Source: a virus (Duplodnaviria; Caudoviricetes). From it: a stretch of 64,000 bases of DNA. The stretch lies in IMG/VR virus record IMGVR_UViG_2511231106_000004, positions 47,356-111,355 of that record; one strand, given 5' to 3'. Shown here piece by piece: positions 11,242 through 47,453 of this stretch. Both the position numbers and the translations under genes were made by a program. Numbering within the stretch: the first letter of the stretch is position 1; each line of letters opens with the position of its first letter. The notes below the pieces were generated by a model that saw only the letters and a list, made by a program, of their open reading frames with translations, made no database searches and was not told where the DNA came from.

Positions 11242-12633
11242 ATGCCCTCACAAAACAACTTCCACGTTCCCCATTTATGCGGTGGTATCCTGTTCAATCT
11301 TTTACTGGAAACAAGAAAAACACGCGGAAAAATCCGTGACAGGGCACATGGCGGAACAGACGGTCTTTCTGATTTGGATGTATATATAGGACTTGTAAAT
11401 GTTGTAGCTGGCAATGACTGGAAAGATGTTGACGGGACAACAAAAAATAAATGTGTATCTAACTATAAAAGGTGCGTGGACAGCACAGGTTCATATGTTC
11501 CTTTTACTGATGAGGTTTTTAGGAAAGCCTTCGATTCGGAATACAATAAAAAAAGCCCTGCCCTCCTTGAAAGGATGGCAAGGTTCATAGAACAGTATTT
11601 GAGTCTTGAAAAGTGCAAGTGGCTTGGCAAAGCATTGATTGAAATCATGCAAAAAGACCCTTCAATCAATGATGATGCCGAAATTGCTGTAGACTTTGGA
11701 CAAAATATTTCTGTAAAAAAACTGCATGAGGCAAAGAACATTCACTTTTTGCCTTTTTTCCTAAGCGTACTGCATTACGTAATCGATAATTGCCCTGACT
11801 GCGAATCCGGGCGGTCCACCTTTGAAACCTGGTATTGCCAAGTTGGTCCGAAAGCGCCATGGAAACCCAAACATGATGTACTCAGTAAACTCGGTGGCAC
11901 CATCGGCGATATGGAAGTGTCAGTGAATCTGGAAGTTCAGAAAGCCATTACGATAAAAGATGCAGAACATAGAAATTCCGAGAGTACATCTTCTGCAGAT
12001 GAATGCTCATCGGAAAAGCCAGATAAAAATAATGATATTCTTTCATCCGAATCCCCGCTTTCCAACCGTGATACCACTCTTTTACCCCGGCTGGCGAAGG
12101 GATTCAACAAAATATTGAAGTTTGCCAAAGACACGGACCTCAGTATAGAACGTATGCCTTCCGAAATTCTGAATACCTTTGAGACCCTGTATAATGAATG
12201 GAAGGATCAAGACACGGACTTTAAAGATCCGGAACTGAATAAATTGAAATATGACATTCTAAATACATTGTATTGGTATATCAACTTCTGGGGAACTCAT
12301 CTTTGGCTCAACGATGATTCTGATTGCTTTGTCCACCTAAAAAATACGTACAAAGATTCCTGGAAAAAAGAAGGAGAACTTCGTCAGCAGGCCATGAAGG
12401 ACAGAGAAGCTTTCACCCGTCTGCATGAAAGGCTTTGTCGGTATATCATAGACTTTGATATCGATCTAAACAAAACTGAACCAGTTGAAGCCAAGGTCGT
12501 AGAAGAAACGCCGCCTCTGGAAAATAATCAAGGCGGCAGCCGGACTACAATTATCGAGCACCAGACCAATATCGGCCACAGTGTGTCAAAGACATATAAC
12601 ATAAAGGACAGCACTGTCACATTTAATGATTAA
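11242..12633 (+). CDS. Uncharacterised 463 aa protein with C-terminal amyloid-like motif
   Basis: GGAGG RBS, long low-GC ORF; ends QTNIGHSVSKTYNIKDSTVTFND. Confidence 0.85.
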   Translation: MPSQNNFHVPHLCGGILFNLLLETRKTRGKIRDRAHGGTDGLSDLDVYIGLVNVVAGNDWKDVDGTTKNKCVSNYKRCVDSTGSYVPFTDEVFRKAFDSEYNKKSPALLERMARFIEQYLSLEKCKWLGKALIEIMQKDPSINDDAEIAVDFGQNISVKKLHEAKNIHFLPFFLSVLHYVIDNCPDCESGRSTFETWYCQVGPKAPWKPKHDVLSKLGGTIGDMEVSVNLEVQKAITIKDAEHRNSESTSSADECSSEKPDKNNDILSSESPLSNRDTTLLPRLAKGFNKILKFAKDTDLSIERMPSEILNTFETLYNEWKDQDTDFKDPELNKLKYDILNTLYWYINFWGTHLWLNDDSDCFVHLKNTYKDSWKKEGELRQQAMKDREAFTRLHERLCRYIIDFDIDLNKTEPVEAKVVEETPPLENNQGGSRTTIIEHQTNIGHSVSKTYNIKDSTVTFND

Positions 12634-12646
12634 GGAGAAACAATGT

Positions 12647-13297
12647 ATGAAGAATTTAACAGCTCCTGGCCCACATCAAGTGCGGCCGATAGCCCAAACG
12701 AATATAGGGAATCAGGTCATAAAGACATACAACATTCAGGACAGCAACGTTAACATCTATAATACGTTTCCACCTAACCAAGGGAATCCATATAGTGCAG
12801 CCCAAATGATTGCACTCAATAATTTCAGCAAAGAATATTATCAGCTCCTCGTTACCTGTGAAACAGATGTCTTTGAAAATAATAACGCCACATTTCCCTT
12901 AGACCGTGCGTTAAGTCAAAGGTATGTTCCGGAAGAAATATTAACCCGTTGTTCGTCTTTGTCAGAAGAAGGGATTGCCGAACTGAAGACCTTTCCGGCC
13001 ATTGTCTGTATGGAAAACACAGGGTTCAATGGAATTACAGATCCTAATCAAACCGCGATATTCGCATATATAACACGAGTAAAAATGGAAGGCTACCAAG
13101 TTAGAGTGGCGTTCCAGCCCATTGCACCATTCCATCAAAAAATACTTTGTGAACAGAAATATGCTATTTATTTCGACTTGAACATGAGTTGTGCCATTAC
13201 GGATTTGAATCGCACTGCCTGGTCTATCCATAAAGTGAATCTTTTTGAAGCTTTCAATGAGTCTGGACTGGGATATCTCCCGCACCCTTCTATTTAA
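12647..13297 (+). CDS. Uncharacterised 216 aa protein with N-terminal amyloid-like motif
   Basis: AAGGAG 9 nt before ATG 12647; residues 17-39 QTNIGNQVIKTYNIQDSNVNIYN. Confidence 0.85.
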   Translation: MKNLTAPGPHQVRPIAQTNIGNQVIKTYNIQDSNVNIYNTFPPNQGNPYSAAQMIALNNFSKEYYQLLVTCETDVFENNNATFPLDRALSQRYVPEEILTRCSSLSEEGIAELKTFPAIVCMENTGFNGITDPNQTAIFAYITRVKMEGYQVRVAFQPIAPFHQKILCEQKYAIYFDLNMSCAITDLNRTAWSIHKVNLFEAFNESGLGYLPHPSI

Positions 13298-13309
13298 AGG
13301 TGACTGTCT

Positions 13310-15661
13310 ATGAACAGAAAATATCCAAGCGAAATAACAGAAATTAGAGTGGATGATGCAACCTTTAAAAATACAGGCACTGTCATCACCCCCACCTATA
13401 TCAACTACTTTTTCGGAAACAACGGCACGGGAAAATCCACTATTGCCAAAGCAATCCAATCTGGAACTGGCATCAAGTATGCTCCAGGAAGATCTGCCAC
13501 AGACTACCAGGTATTGGTTTTCAACCAAGAATATATCAATCGAAATATGCAGAACTTCCATAACCTTCCAGGTGTTTTTACGATGGCCGAGGAGAATGCA
13601 GAAATCCAGGACAAGATTGATGAGGCTGCAGAGCAGCTGGCTGATGCACAGGAAAAAGTATCAGATGCCACGGATGAAAAAGAAAAATTAATTAAAATAA
13701 AAAAAGAAATCTGTACAAAGTTCTACGATGAAATCTGGCGGCGGACTGGAAAACTGCGTAAAACATTTCCAGGCACACAGGCTGGATACCTCAAATCAAA
13801 GGCTAATTTAGCCGACAAAGTAAAACTGTGTTCACCCAGCGAATATGATTTGGATGATCTTAAACGGATGTATGATTCTGCCTACTCTTCTACAGCACAG
13901 AGCTATCCTCGCTTTAATACAATTAGCGATACTACTGTGCTTGACAGCATTGAAGGCAGCGAAATTCTATCTGTTGCAATTGTCAATTCCTCAGATACCC
14001 AACTTGCAAAATTTTGGAAGAAAATCAAGGCTTCCGAATGGGTGCGTCAAGGCCATTCTGCATATCATGGCAAAACCGATGGGAAATGCCCTTTTTGTTC
14101 ACAGCCTTTGCCTTCAGAATTTGAAAAATTCTTGACAGACAGTTTTGATGACCAATACGAGAAGAACCTTACAAAGCTATCAGCATTCCTTGAAGATTAC
14201 AGAAACACAGCCAACGCTTTATTTATGCCTTTGTCAAAACTTCCAGAACCGCTATATCCTGTCCTTGATGAAAAACCCTACAAGGATAAACTGGAAGCCC
14301 TAAGAGGTATTATTTCTACAAACATAAACCGGATAAAAGAAAAAATAGCCGAACCTTCTAAATCTATTAAATTGGATAATACCGCACCACTACTACAAGA
14401 ACTCCAAAAAATGATTACAGATTATAATAAACTAATTTCTGATAACAACATGGTAGTTGCTGATGCCCCTAAGAAAAAAGAAGAATGCAAAGAAAAAGTC
14501 TTTTCTTTCATGTCCTTCATAACAAATGAAACAATCAAGGCTTTCAACAAAAGTATCTCTGACATTAATAAACAGCTAAACAAGCAACAGGAAATCATTG
14601 ATACTCAGACAGAGCAAGGTGCGGATATCAGAGAAGAAATCCGTGTTCTAAACAGCCAGACAAAAGAAACTGAGTCCGCCATGAACAACATAAACCTTAT
14701 GCTGAAAGATGCCGGATTCCAGGGATTTAAAGTCTGTCCCCACTGGGAAGAAAGAAGAAATCCGGATGGTTCTGTAAAACGAGTGATTCCTTCGCCGATT
14801 CGTAACTATGCTGTAGTCCGTACCGATACCGAAACAGGAGAAGAAGAAATTGCACATGACCTTAGTGAAGGAGAAAAGAATTTCATCGCCTTCCTGTATT
14901 TCCAGCAAACTGTATTCGGGAGCACTGACGCAGACAGCGATTCTCTGCAAAAAATAGTTGTTATTGATGACCCCGTTTCCAGCATGGACAGTGGTACGCT
15001 TTTTATTGTAAGTGCTCAAATCCGTAAGATGATCCATATTTGCCGAAACAATGTTGACAACCGGCAACCGGCAGCAGATGGAAATTTCATCAAGCAGATT
15101 TTCATTCTTACCCATAATGCTTATTTCCATCGAGAGGTAAGTTACCTTTATGCCCGACAGTGGAACTTTGTATCTTTTTACCTGGTCCGCAAAATCAACA
15201 ATAAATCTTCCGTCCAGTTGTTTGAAAAGCAGAACCCCGACTGCCCTACCAAAATGATGAATGTCAATCCCGTCAAGAACTCCTACGCTGCCCTTTGGGA
15301 ATCTTATAAGGAAGTCCGGAGCGGTATCCCGTTAAAGAGCACCATCCGCAGGATTTTAGAATATTATTTCCTGCAATTATGCGGCTATGAAGGAGACGAT
15401 TTGAGAAAACGTATCCTGGAAGACCATAAGAACAACTTTCTATATGACGAAAATGGCCATGAAACTCCAGAACGATACGAGATGGCTAAGGTCCTTCTGT
15501 CTTACATCATCTCCGATAATTCCAGCGTGAATGATGGAATCAACTACACGGACGATTTCCTCGATGAACAGCTTTACAGGGATACATTTAAAATGATTTT
15601 CAAATACATGAATCAGGAACAGCACTTCAATATGATGATGGGTAACGAACAAGGAGAATAA
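13310..15661 (+). CDS. RloC-like (AAA_13) ABC/SMC-type ATPase with zinc hook
   Basis: Walker A GNNGTGKS, coiled coils, CPFC, signature LSEGEK, Walker B IVVIDDPVSSMD, H-loop LTHN, IRRILEYYF. Confidence 0.85.
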   Translation: MNRKYPSEITEIRVDDATFKNTGTVITPTYINYFFGNNGTGKSTIAKAIQSGTGIKYAPGRSATDYQVLVFNQEYINRNMQNFHNLPGVFTMAEENAEIQDKIDEAAEQLADAQEKVSDATDEKEKLIKIKKEICTKFYDEIWRRTGKLRKTFPGTQAGYLKSKANLADKVKLCSPSEYDLDDLKRMYDSAYSSTAQSYPRFNTISDTTVLDSIEGSEILSVAIVNSSDTQLAKFWKKIKASEWVRQGHSAYHGKTDGKCPFCSQPLPSEFEKFLTDSFDDQYEKNLTKLSAFLEDYRNTANALFMPLSKLPEPLYPVLDEKPYKDKLEALRGIISTNINRIKEKIAEPSKSIKLDNTAPLLQELQKMITDYNKLISDNNMVVADAPKKKEECKEKVFSFMSFITNETIKAFNKSISDINKQLNKQQEIIDTQTEQGADIREEIRVLNSQTKETESAMNNINLMLKDAGFQGFKVCPHWEERRNPDGSVKRVIPSPIRNYAVVRTDTETGEEEIAHDLSEGEKNFIAFLYFQQTVFGSTDADSDSLQKIVVIDDPVSSMDSGTLFIVSAQIRKMIHICRNNVDNRQPAADGNFIKQIFILTHNAYFHREVSYLYARQWNFVSFYLVRKINNKSSVQLFEKQNPDCPTKMMNVNPVKNSYAALWESYKEVRSGIPLKSTIRRILEYYFLQLCGYEGDDLRKRILEDHKNNFLYDENGHETPERYEMAKVLLSYIISDNSSVNDGINYTDDFLDEQLYRDTFKMIFKYMNQEQHFNMMMGNEQGE

Positions 15662-15665
15662 TGAA

Positions 15666-15869
15666 ATGCGTATCAGCTACAATAAACTATGGAAGTTGTT
15701 GATTGACAAAAATATGACCAAGATGGAATTAAAGGAAGCAGCCGGAGTAAGTTCCGCTTCGATTGCAAAGCTCGGCAAAGGTGCCAATATTACAACCGAT
15801 GTCCTGCTTAAAATCTGCGAGGCCCTTCATTGCCGTGTAGAAGATATTATCGAAACGATCAATGATTAA
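15666..15869 (+). CDS. Xre/Cro-C1 HTH protein (67 aa)
   Basis: ISYNKLWKLLIDK, GVSSASIAKL, ICEALHC. Confidence 0.9.
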   Translation: MRISYNKLWKLLIDKNMTKMELKEAAGVSSASIAKLGKGANITTDVLLKICEALHCRVEDIIETIND

Positions 15870-15935: not shown

Positions 15936-18605
15936 TTACCAAACTATTGAACGGTGGTCTTTTATCCTATCGTTCAGATGTTGTGCATTTATGACTTTAG
16001 AAAGAATATTCCTGAATACACAGATATTCTTTTTAGGGGAAAATAAAAAATGAGCCTTCGAAGGAAAATCCTTCAGAAGCCCATATATCAAGCCGCTTTT
16101 ACTGTTTGGGGTGCGGAAAATTTTTTTATCAATACGGAAAGGCTTATTTTTATCATCTTTATCATTTATCCGTACACGTTCTACCTTATGCCGGTCATTA
16201 TCCTTGCCAGAAATACGGTCCACACGGAACCGATCAGCAGATGCCACTTTTTCAACTTCAGGAGCAAATTCGCTCAAAGAACGTCCCATATCTGCATCTA
16301 CAGGAGCCCCGTTTTGTAACGCACGATAGACAATAGCTGCATATTCATAACGAGTCATTGCTCGATCGCCTTTAAACTCACCATCTGTATATCCATTTAA
16401 ATAGCCTCTATCGGCCAAACTCTTAACATACTGATAGGCCCAATGGTCTTTTGGAACGTCCGAGAAATTAACATTTCTCATAGGAGAAACTGTGCCAGCT
16501 TTCATCATGTTTTTCAATTCATCAAGTTCTTGGCGCATTTCCAAATTATCATTACGTAAGGCAATAATTTCTTTTGCCATAGATACCTTAGACCGGCTAA
16601 CAGTACTCTTCTGTCCCAGTTTAAAAGTCACGCCGGCATTAACCATGTTTTCTCCACCACCGAAGCTCCCTCCGACAGAAAACATAGTATCTTCGTTAGG
16701 TCTATAGAAAGCTCCTACAGCTACAGCATGGGCATCTTTGTAGTTACCATAACCTGTTGCAAAGTCCCACTTATTATCGGGATCAAAATCTTGGGGATGA
16801 AGAGCTGATAAAGCTGCTGCACCAGCACCGACTCTGTTTATACGGGTATCCATTTTATCTAATCTGCCAGTTAAAGAGCCTCCCGGAAGCTGTATATCAT
16901 TGAAATAGCCTACACCCGCATGAACATCTCCTTTAATATTTGCATCACCATCTACTTGGAGATTTTGTTGAATATGAGTATCACCAGCGATGGTTGTATT
17001 CCCACCAATATTGGTATTGCCGTCTACCTGGAGATCCTGTTTCAGGTGGGTGTCACCACCTACCGTTGTATTGCCGTCAATATTGGTATTGCCGTCTACC
17101 TGAAGATCCTGTTTCAGGTGGGTGTCACCGCCTACCGCTGCATTACCGTCAATATTGGTATTGCCGTCTACCTGAAGATCCTGTTTCAGGTGGGTGTCAC
17201 CACCTACCGTTGTATTGCCGTCAATATTGGTATTGCCGTCTACCTGAAGATCCTGTTTCAGGTGGGTGTCACCACCTACCGTTGCATTGCCATCAATATT
17301 GGCAGCACCTCCGATGTGGGCATCGCCAATGGTAGTAATAGAATCAAACGTTGGGTTCTTGTCCATCTTGACTGTGATGGTCGTATTGCCTGCTCCGTCT
17401 TGGCTCACAACGGTTTTGAGGTTATCCCCGGAGTATTCGGTGTCCGCTTTTGCGCCTTCACCTACTACGTTAACTGTACTCCCCAGTTTGGCCGTAGCCG
17501 GATTTGCCGCACCGCTTGCAGAATTGGCACCAAACTTCAGGCCGTTATTGATGAGTGTCTGCCCGTACTGATATACGCCATTGCTGGTAGCGAGATCTGA
17601 ATTCCCAGCTGCAATCGTGTCTGTGCCATTTACGCTGATAGTATAATTAGTACTTCCGCCAGCACCTGTATTAGATGATACCGAAACGTGGCTTCCACCT
17701 GTAATAGTGGTTCGAGCAGCAGCTGCAGCCTGTGCTACAGCAAAGAGCTGTGAACCATTTACTGCGTCTGTAGACCCTGCATCCACACGTCCAGCAGCCA
17801 GATGCGTCAACGTACGTTGTGTAGTGCCGTTGCCTATGGAAACCGTTCCATTGACATTGGTTCCTGCGAAGTTATAATTCTGGCTTCCAATGGTCATTCC
17901 TGCAGTTGAGACGGCTCCTTCTGCAGACGAACCCGCACCTAAGGCAACAACATTTGAAAGTCCGTCTATATTAATTCCTGCCCCTAACGCAACATTATTA
18001 TTTCCGTTTGAGATATTATTACCTGTCCCCAAGGAGACACTATCAAAAGAATTACTACTTGTACTGCCAGTACCTATGGAAATCCCATTACCAACGCTAT
18101 TTTCGATTTTTACGCCCTGTCCTATCCCGATAGTTGTTGTGCCCAATGCATATCCTGATAATCCTGTAGTGGTAGGTACTGAATCAATATTGCCGATCAT
18201 AATAGATGCATAGTCAGCTCTAGCACCAGTTCCGATTGCAATGGCTCCGGTATTGACGTCTTGGCTTAACGGATTGCCAACAGATGCTTTAGAATTGGCG
18301 CCGATAGCAATAGCTGTATTACCACTATGTCCATTTGAAGCAGTACTATCTACTGCAGCTGCATTGTCGCCAATCGCGATACCCTGTTGGTACTTATGGG
18401 CTCCATCACCCGATGTTACACCCTCGGCAAATGCGGTTCCCAAACTAAGGCTTGATCCTAACAGTACAGCAAGTGCGCCGGCTACTACTCTGCCAGTGAC
18501 TCCAAGCTTGTTCCCATTATTCCTTCCGTAACTTTTTGCCAGTTCAGAAGTAACCACATAGCAGTTACGCACCCGATTCCAAACCAACTTATAAATTCTG
18601 TTCAT
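15936..18605 (-). CDS. YadA-like trimeric autotransporter adhesin with ESPR signal, beta-helix repeats, anchor and SLH domain
   Basis: MNRIYKLVWN..VTSELA; AIAIG head repeats; TDAVNGSQL neck; GAGAAALSALHP..GVTFKLG anchor; FSDVPKDHWAY..TRYEYA SLH. Confidence 0.92.
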   Translation of the reverse strand: MNRIYKLVWNRVRNCYVVTSELAKSYGRNNGNKLGVTGRVVAGALAVLLGSSLSLGTAFAEGVTSGDGAHKYQQGIAIGDNAAAVDSTASNGHSGNTAIAIGANSKASVGNPLSQDVNTGAIAIGTGARADYASIMIGNIDSVPTTTGLSGYALGTTTIGIGQGVKIENSVGNGISIGTGSTSSNSFDSVSLGTGNNISNGNNNVALGAGINIDGLSNVVALGAGSSAEGAVSTAGMTIGSQNYNFAGTNVNGTVSIGNGTTQRTLTHLAAGRVDAGSTDAVNGSQLFAVAQAAAAARTTITGGSHVSVSSNTGAGGSTNYTISVNGTDTIAAGNSDLATSNGVYQYGQTLINNGLKFGANSASGAANPATAKLGSTVNVVGEGAKADTEYSGDNLKTVVSQDGAGNTTITVKMDKNPTFDSITTIGDAHIGGAANIDGNATVGGDTHLKQDLQVDGNTNIDGNTTVGGDTHLKQDLQVDGNTNIDGNAAVGGDTHLKQDLQVDGNTNIDGNTTVGGDTHLKQDLQVDGNTNIGGNTTIAGDTHIQQNLQVDGDANIKGDVHAGVGYFNDIQLPGGSLTGRLDKMDTRINRVGAGAAALSALHPQDFDPDNKWDFATGYGNYKDAHAVAVGAFYRPNEDTMFSVGGSFGGGENMVNAGVTFKLGQKSTVSRSKVSMAKEIIALRNDNLEMRQELDELKNMMKAGTVSPMRNVNFSDVPKDHWAYQYVKSLADRGYLNGYTDGEFKGDRAMTRYEYAAIVYRALQNGAPVDADMGRSLSEFAPEVEKVASADRFRVDRISGKDNDRHKVERVRINDKDDKNKPFRIDKKIFRTPNSKSGLIYGLLKDFPSKAHFLFSPKKNICVFRNILSKVINAQHLNDRIKDHRSIVW
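16925..17330 (-). repeat. Intragenic 72-bp (24 aa) tandem repeats
   Basis: GGDTHLKQDLQVDGNTNIDGNTTV four times near-identical, plus degenerate flanking units. Confidence 0.9.
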
Positions 18606-18686: not shown

Positions 18687-20258
18687 TCACATTCCCACAT
18701 GTATTTTCGTACCATTCTTAAAAACTATTTGAATTTTTACTTTACTGTATACTATAATGAAGTCTACCAAACTGCACCACAGCCTTTCGTCAAACTCATA
18801 TACAAGATTTTGTTTCTGCAGATTTTTCATAAAGTTATCCAGCTTCCAGTATCTGTCCACACACTGCTGTATGGCATCACAGACCTGATCATACTTCTTC
18901 TTCGTTTCTTCATACCGGCTGACCAGCCCGTTGTACTTCCTGCCATATTCATCCTGGTCCTGTGCCACCTGGGCATTCTCAGCAATGAGCTGTTGCACCT
19001 GGTCGGTCAACATGTTCAGGTCTAATTCCAGCGCATCACGTTCCTTTTCCAAAGATGCGGTATCTGTAAGACGCTTTTTCAGCATCGTGATATTGCTCAG
19101 AATATCTTCCTTATTTTCAATAAGCTGATTGACTGCTCGGATAAAAGCACCTTTAATTTCATTCTCCGTCAGGTGCGGCGTCTGACAGTGATTCTTGAAT
19201 TTGTCATTGCAGCGGTAGATGGTTCTCCGGTACTTATCAGTCGAATGCCAGACCTTGGCCCCGTACCAGCCGCCGCACTGGCCGCATTTGATTTTACTGG
19301 AGAAGATGGATACGCCGCTGTAACGTTTTTTCCTTTTACGCCGCCTCTTGATTTCCTCCTGTACCCAATCGAATACCTGCGGGCTGATGATAGCTTCATG
19401 GTTATGTTCCACATAATACTGTGGCACTTCCCCTTCATTTTTCTTTGTCTCTTTTGTCAGAAAATCAACCGTGATTTTTTTCTGAAGCAGGGCATCCCCT
19501 TTATACTTTTCATTCATGAGAATACTTCGGATCGTGTTAGCTCTCCAGATTTTGCAACCAGCTGGAGTGGGAATCTTGCGTTCCGTCAGTTCTTTTGCAA
19601 TAGAATGAAACGTGTATCCGTTAAGATACAAACGGTAAATCAACTTTACGATTTCTGCCTGCTTTTTATTCACTACCAGGTTGCCATCCATTCCCTTATC
19701 ATACCCAAGAAAATGAGTGAATGCCAGACTGACCTTCCCATCAGCAAACCGTTTCCGGTGTCCCCAAGTCACATTCTCAGAGATGCTGCGGCTCTCTTCC
19801 TGTGCCAGAGAACTCATAATCGTAATGAGGAGTTCCCCTTTTGCGTCCAGTGTCCAGATATTTTCCTTTTCAAAATAGATTTCAATCCCTTTATCTTTCA
19901 GTTTTCGCACGGTGGTCAAGCTGTCCACCGTATTCCTGGCAAACCGGCTGACAGATTTTGTGATGATAAGGTCAATTTTGCCGGCTATAGCATCCGCTAT
20001 CATTCGCTTAAATCCTTCCCGGTGTTTGGTATTCGTAGCTGAAATGCCTTCATCCGTGTATATCCCGACAAATTCCCAATCATTTCTGCTCTGGATATAA
20101 CGCGTATAATAATCCACCTGTGCTTCATAGCTAGTAAGTTGCTCATCGTGATCCGTTGAAACCCGTGCATAGCCTGCCACCCTTCTCTTTTTTTGACTGT
20201 TCATCGGCTTTTTCGTATAACTCCGCAGTGTAGCTGGAATTACCTGCACTTTTTTCAT
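18687..20258 (-). CDS. Large serine recombinase
   Basis: VAGYARVST, ITKSVSRFARN, recombinase domain, CGQCG zinc ribbon, coiled coil. Confidence 0.95.
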   Translation of the reverse strand: MKKVQVIPATLRSYTKKPMNSQKKRRVAGYARVSTDHDEQLTSYEAQVDYYTRYIQSRNDWEFVGIYTDEGISATNTKHREGFKRMIADAIAGKIDLIITKSVSRFARNTVDSLTTVRKLKDKGIEIYFEKENIWTLDAKGELLITIMSSLAQEESRSISENVTWGHRKRFADGKVSLAFTHFLGYDKGMDGNLVVNKKQAEIVKLIYRLYLNGYTFHSIAKELTERKIPTPAGCKIWRANTIRSILMNEKYKGDALLQKKITVDFLTKETKKNEGEVPQYYVEHNHEAIISPQVFDWVQEEIKRRRKRKKRYSGVSIFSSKIKCGQCGGWYGAKVWHSTDKYRRTIYRCNDKFKNHCQTPHLTENEIKGAFIRAVNQLIENKEDILSNITMLKKRLTDTASLEKERDALELDLNMLTDQVQQLIAENAQVAQDQDEYGRKYNGLVSRYEETKKKYDQVCDAIQQCVDRYWKLDNFMKNLQKQNLVYEFDERLWCSLVDFIIVYSKVKIQIVFKNGTKIHVGM

Positions 20259-46595: not shown

Positions 46596-47453
46596 TTATA
46601 GGTTCTGATGCCGGCGTTCCTTCTGCTTTCTGGCATGGGCCATGGCCTCTTCTTCCGTGCGGAAAGCACTCCATCCGTTCAGGTCTTTCAGCAGGGCCAT
46701 GCGCGATTCGTGGCTGGCCCTGGTTCCCATGCCGATGCGCAGGAGCCACATCCGCAGGTAGTATTTCTCGTTTTCCGGCTTCCGTGTGGCAGGCTGGACC
46801 CGTTTCGCCTTTTTCGCCGCACTGACAATGAAAGCCGCCAGTTCAATCAGGGCGCGGTTCTTTACGGCATTGCCGGTCGCGGAGAAGTAGAATGTCACCG
46901 TGTCTGCGGCAATCAGGAACCCCCGCCCTTCTTTTCCGTAGTTCTGATAGATGGCAAAGAAGGAAGTCCGGTCTGTACCGGGTTCTTCTTTCAGGTCTTC
47001 CACCAGCCTGTCCGGCACATGGATGTTTTCATGTCCTGCGGCCCGGTTGAGCAGGTACTGCTGAGCATGGAGCATGAAGACCAGGTTGCGGAGCTGCGCC
47101 CCATCCATGCCATCATTGGGAACCTTGATTTCCATCTTGTCCGGCTCCGTCTGCGGCAGTGCTTCCGATTCTGGCGTTTCATCCTGCTGTGTCGGTTCTT
47201 GCGTTACTTCGGTTTCTGTTCCTTCTTCCGGTTTCGGCTGCGGAAGGATTCCTGCTTCCTGCAGGAAATCCGTGATGGCGGCTTCTGTCTTTTCATCATC
47301 GCATTCGATATCGCCGCTGCGAAGGATGCGGAATCCCTGCCCTTCGTAGGCAAAGGCCGGGGTCCCGGTGTAATGAAGCTTTTCGTTACGGTTGAAGGGA
47401 ATCATCCTTCTGGCCAGTTCCTTGCGGTCGTTCAGGTTCGTCTGGATTGTCAT
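46596..47453 (-). CDS. Conserved phage protein ('virulence-related' hypothetical)
   Basis: YTGTPAFAY, acidic linker, ENEKYYLRMWLLRIG; paralog of 146..952. Confidence 0.75.
   Translation of the reverse strand: MTIQTNLNDRKELARRMIPFNRNEKLHYTGTPAFAYEGQGFRILRSGDIECDDEKTEAAITDFLQEAGILPQPKPEEGTETEVTQEPTQQDETPESEALPQTEPDKMEIKVPNDGMDGAQLRNLVFMLHAQQYLLNRAAGHENIHVPDRLVEDLKEEPGTDRTSFFAIYQNYGKEGRGFLIAADTVTFYFSATGNAVKNRALIELAAFIVSAAKKAKRVQPATRKPENEKYYLRMWLLRIGMGTRASHESRMALLKDLNGWSAFRTEEEAMAHARKQKERRHQNL

Follow-up and report, generated by a model that had tools for sequence, protein, structure and literature searches.

A candidate prophage defence module in which a putative effector and an adaptor carry matching amyloid-motif-like tags beside an RloC-like ATPase

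In a stretch of 64,000 nucleotides of viral DNA (hereafter the window; positions 47,356 to 111,355 of IMG/VR record IMGVR_UViG_2511231106_000004), we investigated four consecutive genes, referred to as A, B, C and D. Protein A ends in a short sequence tag that recurs in near-identical form close to the start of protein B, and the third gene encodes an RloC-like ABC ATPase. Homologous loci carry the same arrangement, and across them the two tags vary together. We propose, with somewhat better than even confidence, that A-B-C, with or without D, is a prophage defence module of the abortive-infection type, in which adaptor and effector would be coupled by homotypic, amyloid-like contacts and the RloC-like ATPase would act as motor or sensor. 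The four genes are:

11242-12633, plus strand: gene A, 463 aa (open reading frame (ORF) map).
12647-13297, plus strand: gene B, 216 aa from the ATG at 12647; candidate adaptor or sensor.
13310-15661, plus strand: gene C, 783 aa; AAA_13, RloC-like ABC ATPase with a coiled-coil insert.
15666-15869, plus strand: gene D, 67 aa; HTH_26/XRE protein (Pfam HTH_26, E = 4e-18).

Composition-adjusted BLASTP of A against B yielded a single significant segment, with 14/19 identical residues (E = 2e-5). It pairs the C-terminal end of A, QTNIGHSVSKTYNIKDSTVTFND (12562-12630), with residues 17-39 of B, QTNIGNQVIKTYNIQDSNVNIYN (12695-12763), and direct reading of the DNA revealed different codons at 8 of the 14 identical residues. 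An initial annotation of this DNA had described the motif pair, and ORFs, BLASTP and DNA reading agree with its positions, its count of identities and its count of differing synonymous codons. The same annotation had described linkers rich in proline and glycine that set the motif off from otherwise unrelated domains; BLASTP indeed found only the tag segment, and the flanks contain P and G as stated (..ETPPLENNQGGSR.. 5' of the motif of A, ..TFPPNQGNP.. 3' of that of B). In family alignments the conserved motif of A begins six residues earlier than first described (TTIIEH.., from 12544), the tag is 23-29 aa long in A, and T436, Q441 and N453 are invariant. The elements concerned are:

12454-12543, plus strand: acidic, Pro/Gly-containing linker before the tag of A (predicted local distance difference test (pLDDT) score ~42; 30% D+E and 4.4% P in the family).
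12544-12630, plus strand: C-terminal tag of A, TTIIEHQTNIGHSVSKTYNIKDSTVTFND, 'NS' type (ORF map, BLASTP, DNA reading).
12695-12763, plus strand: N-terminal tag of B, QTNIGNQVIKTYNIQDSNVNIYN (BLASTP, DNA), inside residues 1-41, which are disordered in the AlphaFold2 model.

We collected 205 homologues of B, each ~215 aa long, in which the globular part is 50-70% identical and the first ~45 residues fall into different tag variants. For the analysis of co-variation, 32 loci from species genomes and 80 from metagenomes were used. The B gene typically has an A-type gene on one side and an AAA_13 gene on the other: at practically every locus with an intact upstream gene, the C-terminal tag of the upstream protein resembles the one at the N-terminus of the B homologue, and an AAA_13-type ORF of 750-800 aa follows on the 3' side. 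A further scan of IMG/VR with one sub-alignment of the A family returned 150 stretches, from which 80 loci were kept. These mostly encode an A protein (~300 aa), then a B-like protein (~210 aa) and then an AAA_13 protein (~760 aa; two of the ATPases were confirmed as AAA_13, E = 1e-112 and 1e-121), and tblastn with the window proteins detected a B-like gene in 64/85 and a C-like gene in 58/85 such loci. The order A-tag, tag-B, AAA_13 was thus found in the 32 genome loci, the 80 metagenome loci and most of the 80 IMG/VR loci. The module is present in 7/401 sampled Bacillota genomes and is common in proviruses, as the 150 stretches for a single subfamily illustrate.

The tags of these loci fall into two main classes. 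In the 'GG' class, A terminates in ..TVIQQQTNVIQNGENNFNLTNNGTMNFNF and B has ..QQTGtNNFNVTNqeGGtVNFNi; in the 'NS' class, to which the window belongs, A terminates in ..QTNIaHSESKTYNIKDSnVTFN and B has ..TYIENQ..YNInhSxVTFN. The initial annotation had asked whether the motifs co-vary within homologous operons, and they do: the class of the two partners agreed in all 68 non-redundant loci (57 GG-GG, 11 NS-NS, 0 discordant). Matching extends below the level of the class, with higher scores for cognate than for shuffled pairs both within GG (56.2 vs 53.2 +/- 0.5, p<1e-4) and within NS (64.5 vs 60.4 +/- 1.6, p = 0.004), and individual loci illustrate it (L031: A QNGDHNVNITNNGTMNLNL, B QNGDHNVNITNNQGGTVNLNF; L105: A ..ITINF, B ..VTINY). 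More distant loci have tags of quite different sequence that again resemble those of their neighbours, such as ..IPNYGTVNLTLGK with ..IPNYGTVNLTVQQ, ..NQYAHKIYNIEHVENLN with ..QQSAEKIYNIEHADNVN and ..NQSGSGVNIGQVTNV with ..EQTGEGTNIGLAQNV. Clustering of all pairs at <50% similarity defined 17 tag types, with the cognate partner scoring best in 13/17 rows and 13/17 columns. Cognate tags scored 55.1 on average and non-cognate tags 30.9, and 0/100,000 permutations, uncorrected for phylogeny, reached the observed mean (p<1e-5).

Two N/Q-rich tags lying only ~60 nt apart might resemble each other by chance, as low-complexity sequences do, or because a segment was recently duplicated locally or gene-converted, with no function attached. 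The tag match is, however, far above chance, as it recurs in ~100 related loci and co-varies; given also the composition-adjusted E value and the recurrence in 17 types, low-complexity similarity was ruled out. Cognate tags use the same codon at 43.3% of the 1230 residues identical between them, where 41.8% is expected from codon usage. Codon sharing at random level rules out gene conversion or recent duplication and indicates that the likeness of the tags is kept by selection on the peptides, in line with the protein-level selection claimed from the window by the initial annotation. A relic of gene fission was likewise ruled out, because matching is maintained in 17 diverged tag types. We regard the probability that the match has no function as negligible.

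The last 28 residues of A in the window subfamily consist of 27.5% Asn, 10% Gln, 11% Thr, 18% Val+Ile and 7.5% Gly, and the A motifs of the family contain no proline at all (0/1876 residues), the 30 preceding residues having 30% Asp+Glu and 4.4% Pro. The tag of B is similar (26% N, 12% G, 0.3% P), with 6-12% Pro in its flanks. Bacterial amyloid signalling (BASS) motifs are enriched in N/Q/G/V/I and depleted of P/K/L (Dyrka et al. 2020, 10.1101/2020.01.06.895854), which is the same compositional bias. In the AlphaFold2 monomer models, both ends are unstructured (B residues 1-41, pLDDT ~40; A residues 419-463, pLDDT 42-62); this predicted disorder is what would be expected of amyloid signalling motifs before conversion. 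The best motif-family scores on A-type tails came from Ses_B (E = 0.026, 2/42 proteins) and RHIM (E = 0.26, 1/42), and we take them as hints only. No Pfam family other than Ses_B, the family of the fungal sigma motif, and RHIM shows any link to the tags, and both lie far below significance. Sequence comparison supports the view that the tags correspond in position, length and composition to amyloid signalling motifs. To this extent, and as regards co-variation, the amyloid-signalling model of the initial annotation was supported in part, but its alternative outcome of prophage induction, with A as the missing repressor, was not (see below).

Protein A has no match in Pfam, PHROG, PADLOC or NCBIfam, and a search of the ESM Atlas gave no usable match. 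Its AlphaFold2 model (mean pLDDT 84) predicts two helical parts in front of the linker and tag:

11242-11970, plus strand: N-terminal all-helical domain, residues ~4-243 (pLDDT >90); presumed effector domain.
12064-12453, plus strand: optional middle helical bundle, residues ~275-404 (confident helices in the model).

A profile-free scan of 1.8 billion representatives with A as query found 671 relatives, all through its N-terminal ~230 residues, which bear the signature P.LCGG.lF.LLL..RK.R. Most of these relatives are ~290 aa long, and their C-termini bear many different N/Q/G-rich tags. The same N-domain heads an NB-ARC+TPR protein (P0125) and several NACHT proteins (P0136, P0139, P0185, P0201 and P0233, mostly with SNaCT14). 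The N-terminal module of bacterial NLR-related antiphage proteins serves as their effector (10.1101/2022.07.19.500537), and the N-domain of A therefore occupies an effector position. The sister loci L125 (G353:C1), L141, L144 and L147 encode an A-type protein on its own and, next in order, a NACHT protein with a matching N-terminal tag, which by analogy is the classical effector/NLR arrangement of amyloid signalling.

The A proteins also vary in their other parts. The middle domain is present in only some of them (L013, L014, L021), and for residues 275-405 a VIA fold search produced only generic four-helix-bundle matches (Z<8). Within the subfamily, two unrelated N-terminal domains occur on the same tag (L003-L030 vs the window), MKFxEFAqLLHPIIGG.. 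(~120 aa) and P.LCGG.. (~240 aa), and either may carry the middle helical domain. Judged from these sequences, the A family is a modular repertoire of putative effectors. At the NACHT-type loci L125, L144 (8683-9204) and L147 (8168-8692), we additionally observed, after the NACHT protein, a ~173-aa DUF6650 protein (Pfam E = 2e-23) that begins with the locus-specific tag, so that one tag is common to three proteins, at the C-terminus of the effector and at the N-termini of the NACHT and DUF6650 proteins.

Natural in-frame fusions of A and B exist, one without a tag (P0127) and others with a single tag (P0175, P0176, P0271-P0275). They stand for up to 25 member sequences on several contigs and, as Rosetta-stone proteins, indicate that A and B act in one complex. 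Fusions were seen for both the GG and the NS type and for both N-domain types of A, also at L007:1511-2747; the pattern of one tag copy or none resembles a deletion between two tag-coding repeats.

A direct contact between the tags could take more than one form. They might pair permanently in a pseudo-symmetric beta structure between the chains, which would dock A on B-C, with activation by release or conformational change rather than by templated amyloid growth. Co-variation would be equally expected for any direct contact, the fusion in which a covalent link replaces the tag pair (P0127) is what such a tether predicts, and the order effector, middle protein, ATPase mirrors Lamassu/ABC-3C, where LmuA is sequestered and whose LmuB is weakly matched by C. 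Heteromeric interfaces, however, need complementarity rather than likeness, and here both partners converge on the same sequence in 17 diverged types, which favours same-fold stacking over a complementary interface. The content of 27% N, the lack of proline, the glycine turns and the monomer disorder are features typically seen in amyloid signalling motifs; tags of this kind couple the same effector family to NACHT NLRs, the classical context of templating; and neither A nor B has a PADLOC match to LmuA or LmuC. On balance we consider fixed docking unlikely, yet a serious competitor to the favoured reading.

The two tags might also never touch each other, the tail of A and the N-terminus of B competing instead for one groove on the ATPase or on the PUA-like domain of B. 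Similar peptides for one site would co-vary too, the tags are disordered on their own like linear motifs, and the PUA-like Lon-N fold can bind peptides. Yet tag pairs exist where both AAA_13 and B are missing (the NACHT loci L125, L144 and L147, with DUF6650 tagged as well), in the fusions A is joined to B with one tag or none remaining, and 23-29 residues with three strand-like segments are long for a linear motif. In view of these loci and fusions we judge such a competition quite improbable.

Protein B has no match in Pfam, PHROGs, PADLOC or NCBIfam. Behind its tag, one domain is predicted:

12794-13294, plus strand: globular alpha/beta domain of B, residues 50-216, putatively PUA-like (pLDDT mostly >88).

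Foldseek with this domain retrieved Lon-N and YTH (best E = 3.7e-3, probability score 0.97). In the VIA search, 107-125 residues were aligned at Z 6.6-5.0 and nearly all of the top 17 rows were PUA-like, the matches including the N-domain of VcaM4I, PH1033, YTH, McrB-N, THYN1 (EVE) and ASCH. Many PUA-like domains read modified nucleic acids, and by analogy a sensing role for this domain is possible.

Protein C matches Pfam AAA_13 (E = 5e-111) and, over residues 9-781, the PADLOC model PDLC04890 of PDC-S06 (E = 1.8e-199). Weaker matches were to LmuB (E = 2.6e-17), PrrC (8e-7) and phrog_2801, and a sequence search of PDB with C gave no match. The following elements were located:

13415-13441, plus strand: Walker A motif GNNGTGKST, residues 36-44 (conserved in 55 family ATPases).
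14087-14098, plus strand: zinc-hook-like CxxC motif, CPFC, residues 260-263 (C[PA]xC in 55/55 family members).
15347-15505, plus strand: remnant of a nuclease triad, R680-x3-E684 followed by S731-Y732 where RloC has S-H.

Walker A, signature, Walker B and H-loop are all conserved in the C family, and the coil region matches SbcC/Rad50 profiles. RloC has a coiled-coil insert with a CXXC zinc hook and a nuclease triad of the form Arg-X3-Glu-X36-52-His (PMC2610378). By a spacing-based test, the triad His at +36..+52 after the Glu is absent from C of the window and from 50/54 relatives and present in 4/54. C is thus RloC-like, as the initial annotation had put it on seeing this partner at a locus without an NLR, but, from its residues, probably not an anticodon nuclease. 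Loss of the catalytic His together with retention of the ATPase motifs and of CxxC fits an outsourced effector, the killing function then residing in A. A His near the C-terminus of C (His772, ..NQEQH..) is conserved in 98% of the family ATPases, although the RloC-type His is missing.

Homologues of D occurred in only 3/85 of the more distant loci, which ruled out D as a core component; on this distribution it is probably a regulator, accessory at most. Two of the three follow genes for A-domain-NACHT fusions, which are 885 aa long. The homologues (L199:5790-5990, L200:7629-7829, L198:6819-7016) are 70-79% identical and lie on unrelated IMG/VR contigs, and D may be a mobile regulator that travels with the A effector family.

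In the mechanism that we favour, amyloid-like coupling of adaptor and effector, B and C would form the sensing unit, C being an ATPase of Rad50/RloC type that has a zinc hook and whose nuclease site is degenerate. A would be the executioner, a soluble monomer kept inactive, with its C-terminal tag disordered. Upon infection, the ATPase would drive B to cluster, and the tags of B, thereby gathered, would fold into a beta-rich, amyloid-like stack. This stack would recruit and template the near-identical tag of A, and the resulting oligomerisation of A would switch on its N-domain and so act on the cell. The contact of B with C, the clustering, the templating, the effect of A and the role in defence are what we infer from the gene architecture, the tags and the fusions. 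The logic would be that of HET-S/NWD2, of BASS pairs and of Bab/Agp, with an ABC ATPase in the place of the NLR.

Several points weigh against this reading. The N-domain of A showed no recognisable toxic fold or enzyme site (searches with A as a whole: Foldseek E>0.08; VIA; ESM Atlas). The tags have no significant match to a curated amyloid motif in Pfam, including Ses_B and RHIM, BASS models lying outside the libraries searched. A stable, pseudo-symmetric beta-dimer would also give similar tags. The co-variation statistics carry no phylogenetic correction, the 17 diverged types providing many independent contrasts. The assignment of B as PUA-like (YTH/EVE/ASCH/Lon-N type) is of moderate confidence, as Z<8 can reflect a common arrangement. 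Finally, A-B pairs without an adjacent AAA_13 gene were found at L124, L127, L128, L131 and L132, and the ATPase may therefore not be obligatory. The next genes at these five loci are of restriction-modification (R-M) type, encoding either a 1077-aa SNF2/ResIII helicase with a more distant methylase, or HsdM. Either A-B works without the ATPase there, or the R-M genes are neighbours in a defence island.

The source record is an IMG/VR provirus of 111,355 bp, rated complete by CheckV. The intergenic gaps of the module (-8 or +13 nt between A and B, 12 nt between B and C, 4 nt between C and D) are consistent with an operon. AAGGAG lies 10 nt 5' of the ATG of B at 12647, as read directly from the DNA, and an alternative in-frame ATG at 12626 overlaps the stop codon of A. 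A scan of the locus for promoters and terminators gave no signal above shuffled sequences. At 0.40, the G+C content of the module is below that of the surrounding DNA (~0.54), and near-identical copies were found in one Acidaminococcus genome and one Firmicutes metagenome-assembled genome. No NLR is encoded at the locus, the tag sitting on a PUA-like 216-aa protein beside the AAA_13 ATPase.

The module is flanked by early-type phage genes (primase, Bro-N/ANT and a sigma-like gene) on one side and a serine recombinase on the other. This position, with an HTH gene following C, would also suit a device for prophage regulation or lysis timing, or an addiction cassette of the toxin-antitoxin kind, with A as repressor or induction factor; the initial annotation had likewise considered A as the missing repressor that drives prophage induction. 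Against a role of this sort, A has no DNA-binding domain and its N-domain is the one common to effector positions of bacterial NLRs, C is RloC-like and belongs to a PADLOC candidate defence family, and the low-GC cargo recurs in many unrelated proviruses and chromosomes, often next to R-M genes, with D absent from most loci. A as prophage repressor was rejected for the first two of these reasons, and a function outside defence altogether appears highly improbable to us. The occurrence of low-GC cargo in a complete provirus, together with the match of C to a candidate defence family, we count in favour of defence.

Beyond the module, a trimeric autotransporter adhesin of 889 aa, with an ESPR signal, a YadA stalk and anchor and a C-terminal SLH domain, is encoded at 15936-18605 on the minus strand, inside the provirus record and adjoining the serine recombinase gene (18687-20258). 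The finding suggests that the host belongs to the Negativicutes, and the gene may be cargo of the prophage.

The initial annotation had called the combination undescribed. Our literature search agrees, in that we found no paper linking amyloid motifs to AAA_13, RloC, PDC-S06 or ABC ATPases, and the gene triad may figure in the ABC-3C literature. The general principle of amyloid-motif signalling, however, is already known from BASS1-10 (2020) and from BASS11 Bab/Agp (2024), and what is new here are the effector and adaptor domains, the receptor class and the tag families. Amyloid signalling has so far been tied to NLR receptors in fungi and filamentous bacteria and to one TGP-type sensor of E. 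coli. A wider claim would be that these loci constitute a large, undescribed, phage-borne immune class of Bacillota, in which templating of a prion-like kind links a PUA-like adaptor to a new cell-killing domain, with a Rad50/RloC-like ABC ATPase replacing the NLR. We put this forward tentatively, its likelihood being in our estimate a little short of even.

If true, amyloid signalling would be a general and modular way of wiring prokaryotic immunity that does not depend on STAND NTPases and that reaches ABC/SMC-like ATPases and prophages of gut Firmicutes. The at least 17 matched tag 'dialects' would then be insulation codes that prevent cross-talk of co-resident systems, and they would offer a natural panel of matched variants for studying the specificity of templating. 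A new effector domain and a new PUA-like adaptor would be supplied in a compact module (~4.4 kb), and PDC-S06 would be recast from a single-gene candidate to a three-gene system whose ATPase lacks a nuclease of its own.

Compared with known systems, C is closest to RloC/PrrC and to PDC-S06. It shares with RloC the ABC ATPase motifs, the coiled-coil insert with CxxC, the overall length, R-x3-E and Pfam AAA_13 (PMC2610378). RloC differs in having the catalytic His (S-H, where C has S-Y) and in acting alone, whereas the C-type ATPase is preceded by the A and B genes. The match to PDLC04890 covers the full length of C, but PDC-S06 is catalogued as a single-gene candidate, and the conserved partners A and B and their tags lie outside that definition.

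Lamassu, ABC-3C and DdmABC resemble A-B-C in their gene order of effector (LmuA), small middle protein (LmuC) and long coiled-coil ABC ATPase (LmuB), and also in placing variable effector modules on a constant sensor. The similarity of C to LmuB models is only distant (E = 3e-17 vs 2e-199 for PDC-S06). As A and B match LmuA and LmuC in neither PADLOC nor Pfam, the likeness to Lamassu is one of gene order, and coupling through a shared short tag is not among the described features of Lamassu within the literature examined.

The Bell/NLR pairs of BASS1-10 and the fungal HET-S/NWD2, sigma and PP systems share with A-B a motif of ~25 aa, rich in N/Q/G/V/I and poor in P, which is C-terminal on the effector and N-terminal on the receptor. 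In these systems too, the effector domain may instead head an NLR as an N-terminal fusion, and motif families diversify while pairs stay matched. They differ in their NB-ARC or NACHT receptors and in their occurrence in filamentous Actinobacteria, Cyanobacteria and fungi. Most loci described here use B and an ABC ATPase instead, and only a minority (L125, L144, L147) a NACHT protein; for Firmicutes, BASS pairs have been reported to be rare or lacking (Dyrka et al. 2020, 10.1101/2020.01.06.895854).

The nearest parallel to the coupling of A and B is Bab/Agp (BASS11, E. coli ECOR25), an antiphage abortive-infection pair with a shared amyloid motif and a non-NLR sensor (10.1101/2024.11.07.622273). 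As in A-B, the genes are adjacent and stand in a prophage defence context, and a short motif is common to the effector C-terminus and the N-terminus of a non-NLR sensor. We count as a further likeness to A that the effector is small and helical and has a conserved hydrophobic segment at its N-terminus. Unlike Bab/Agp, the present module is known from its sequence and from hosts among gut Bacillota, the effector domain of A (~240 aa) has no detectable relation to Bell, and the tag sequences differ. The precedent of Bab/Agp nonetheless indicates that an NLR is not obligatory for a pair coupled by an amyloid motif.

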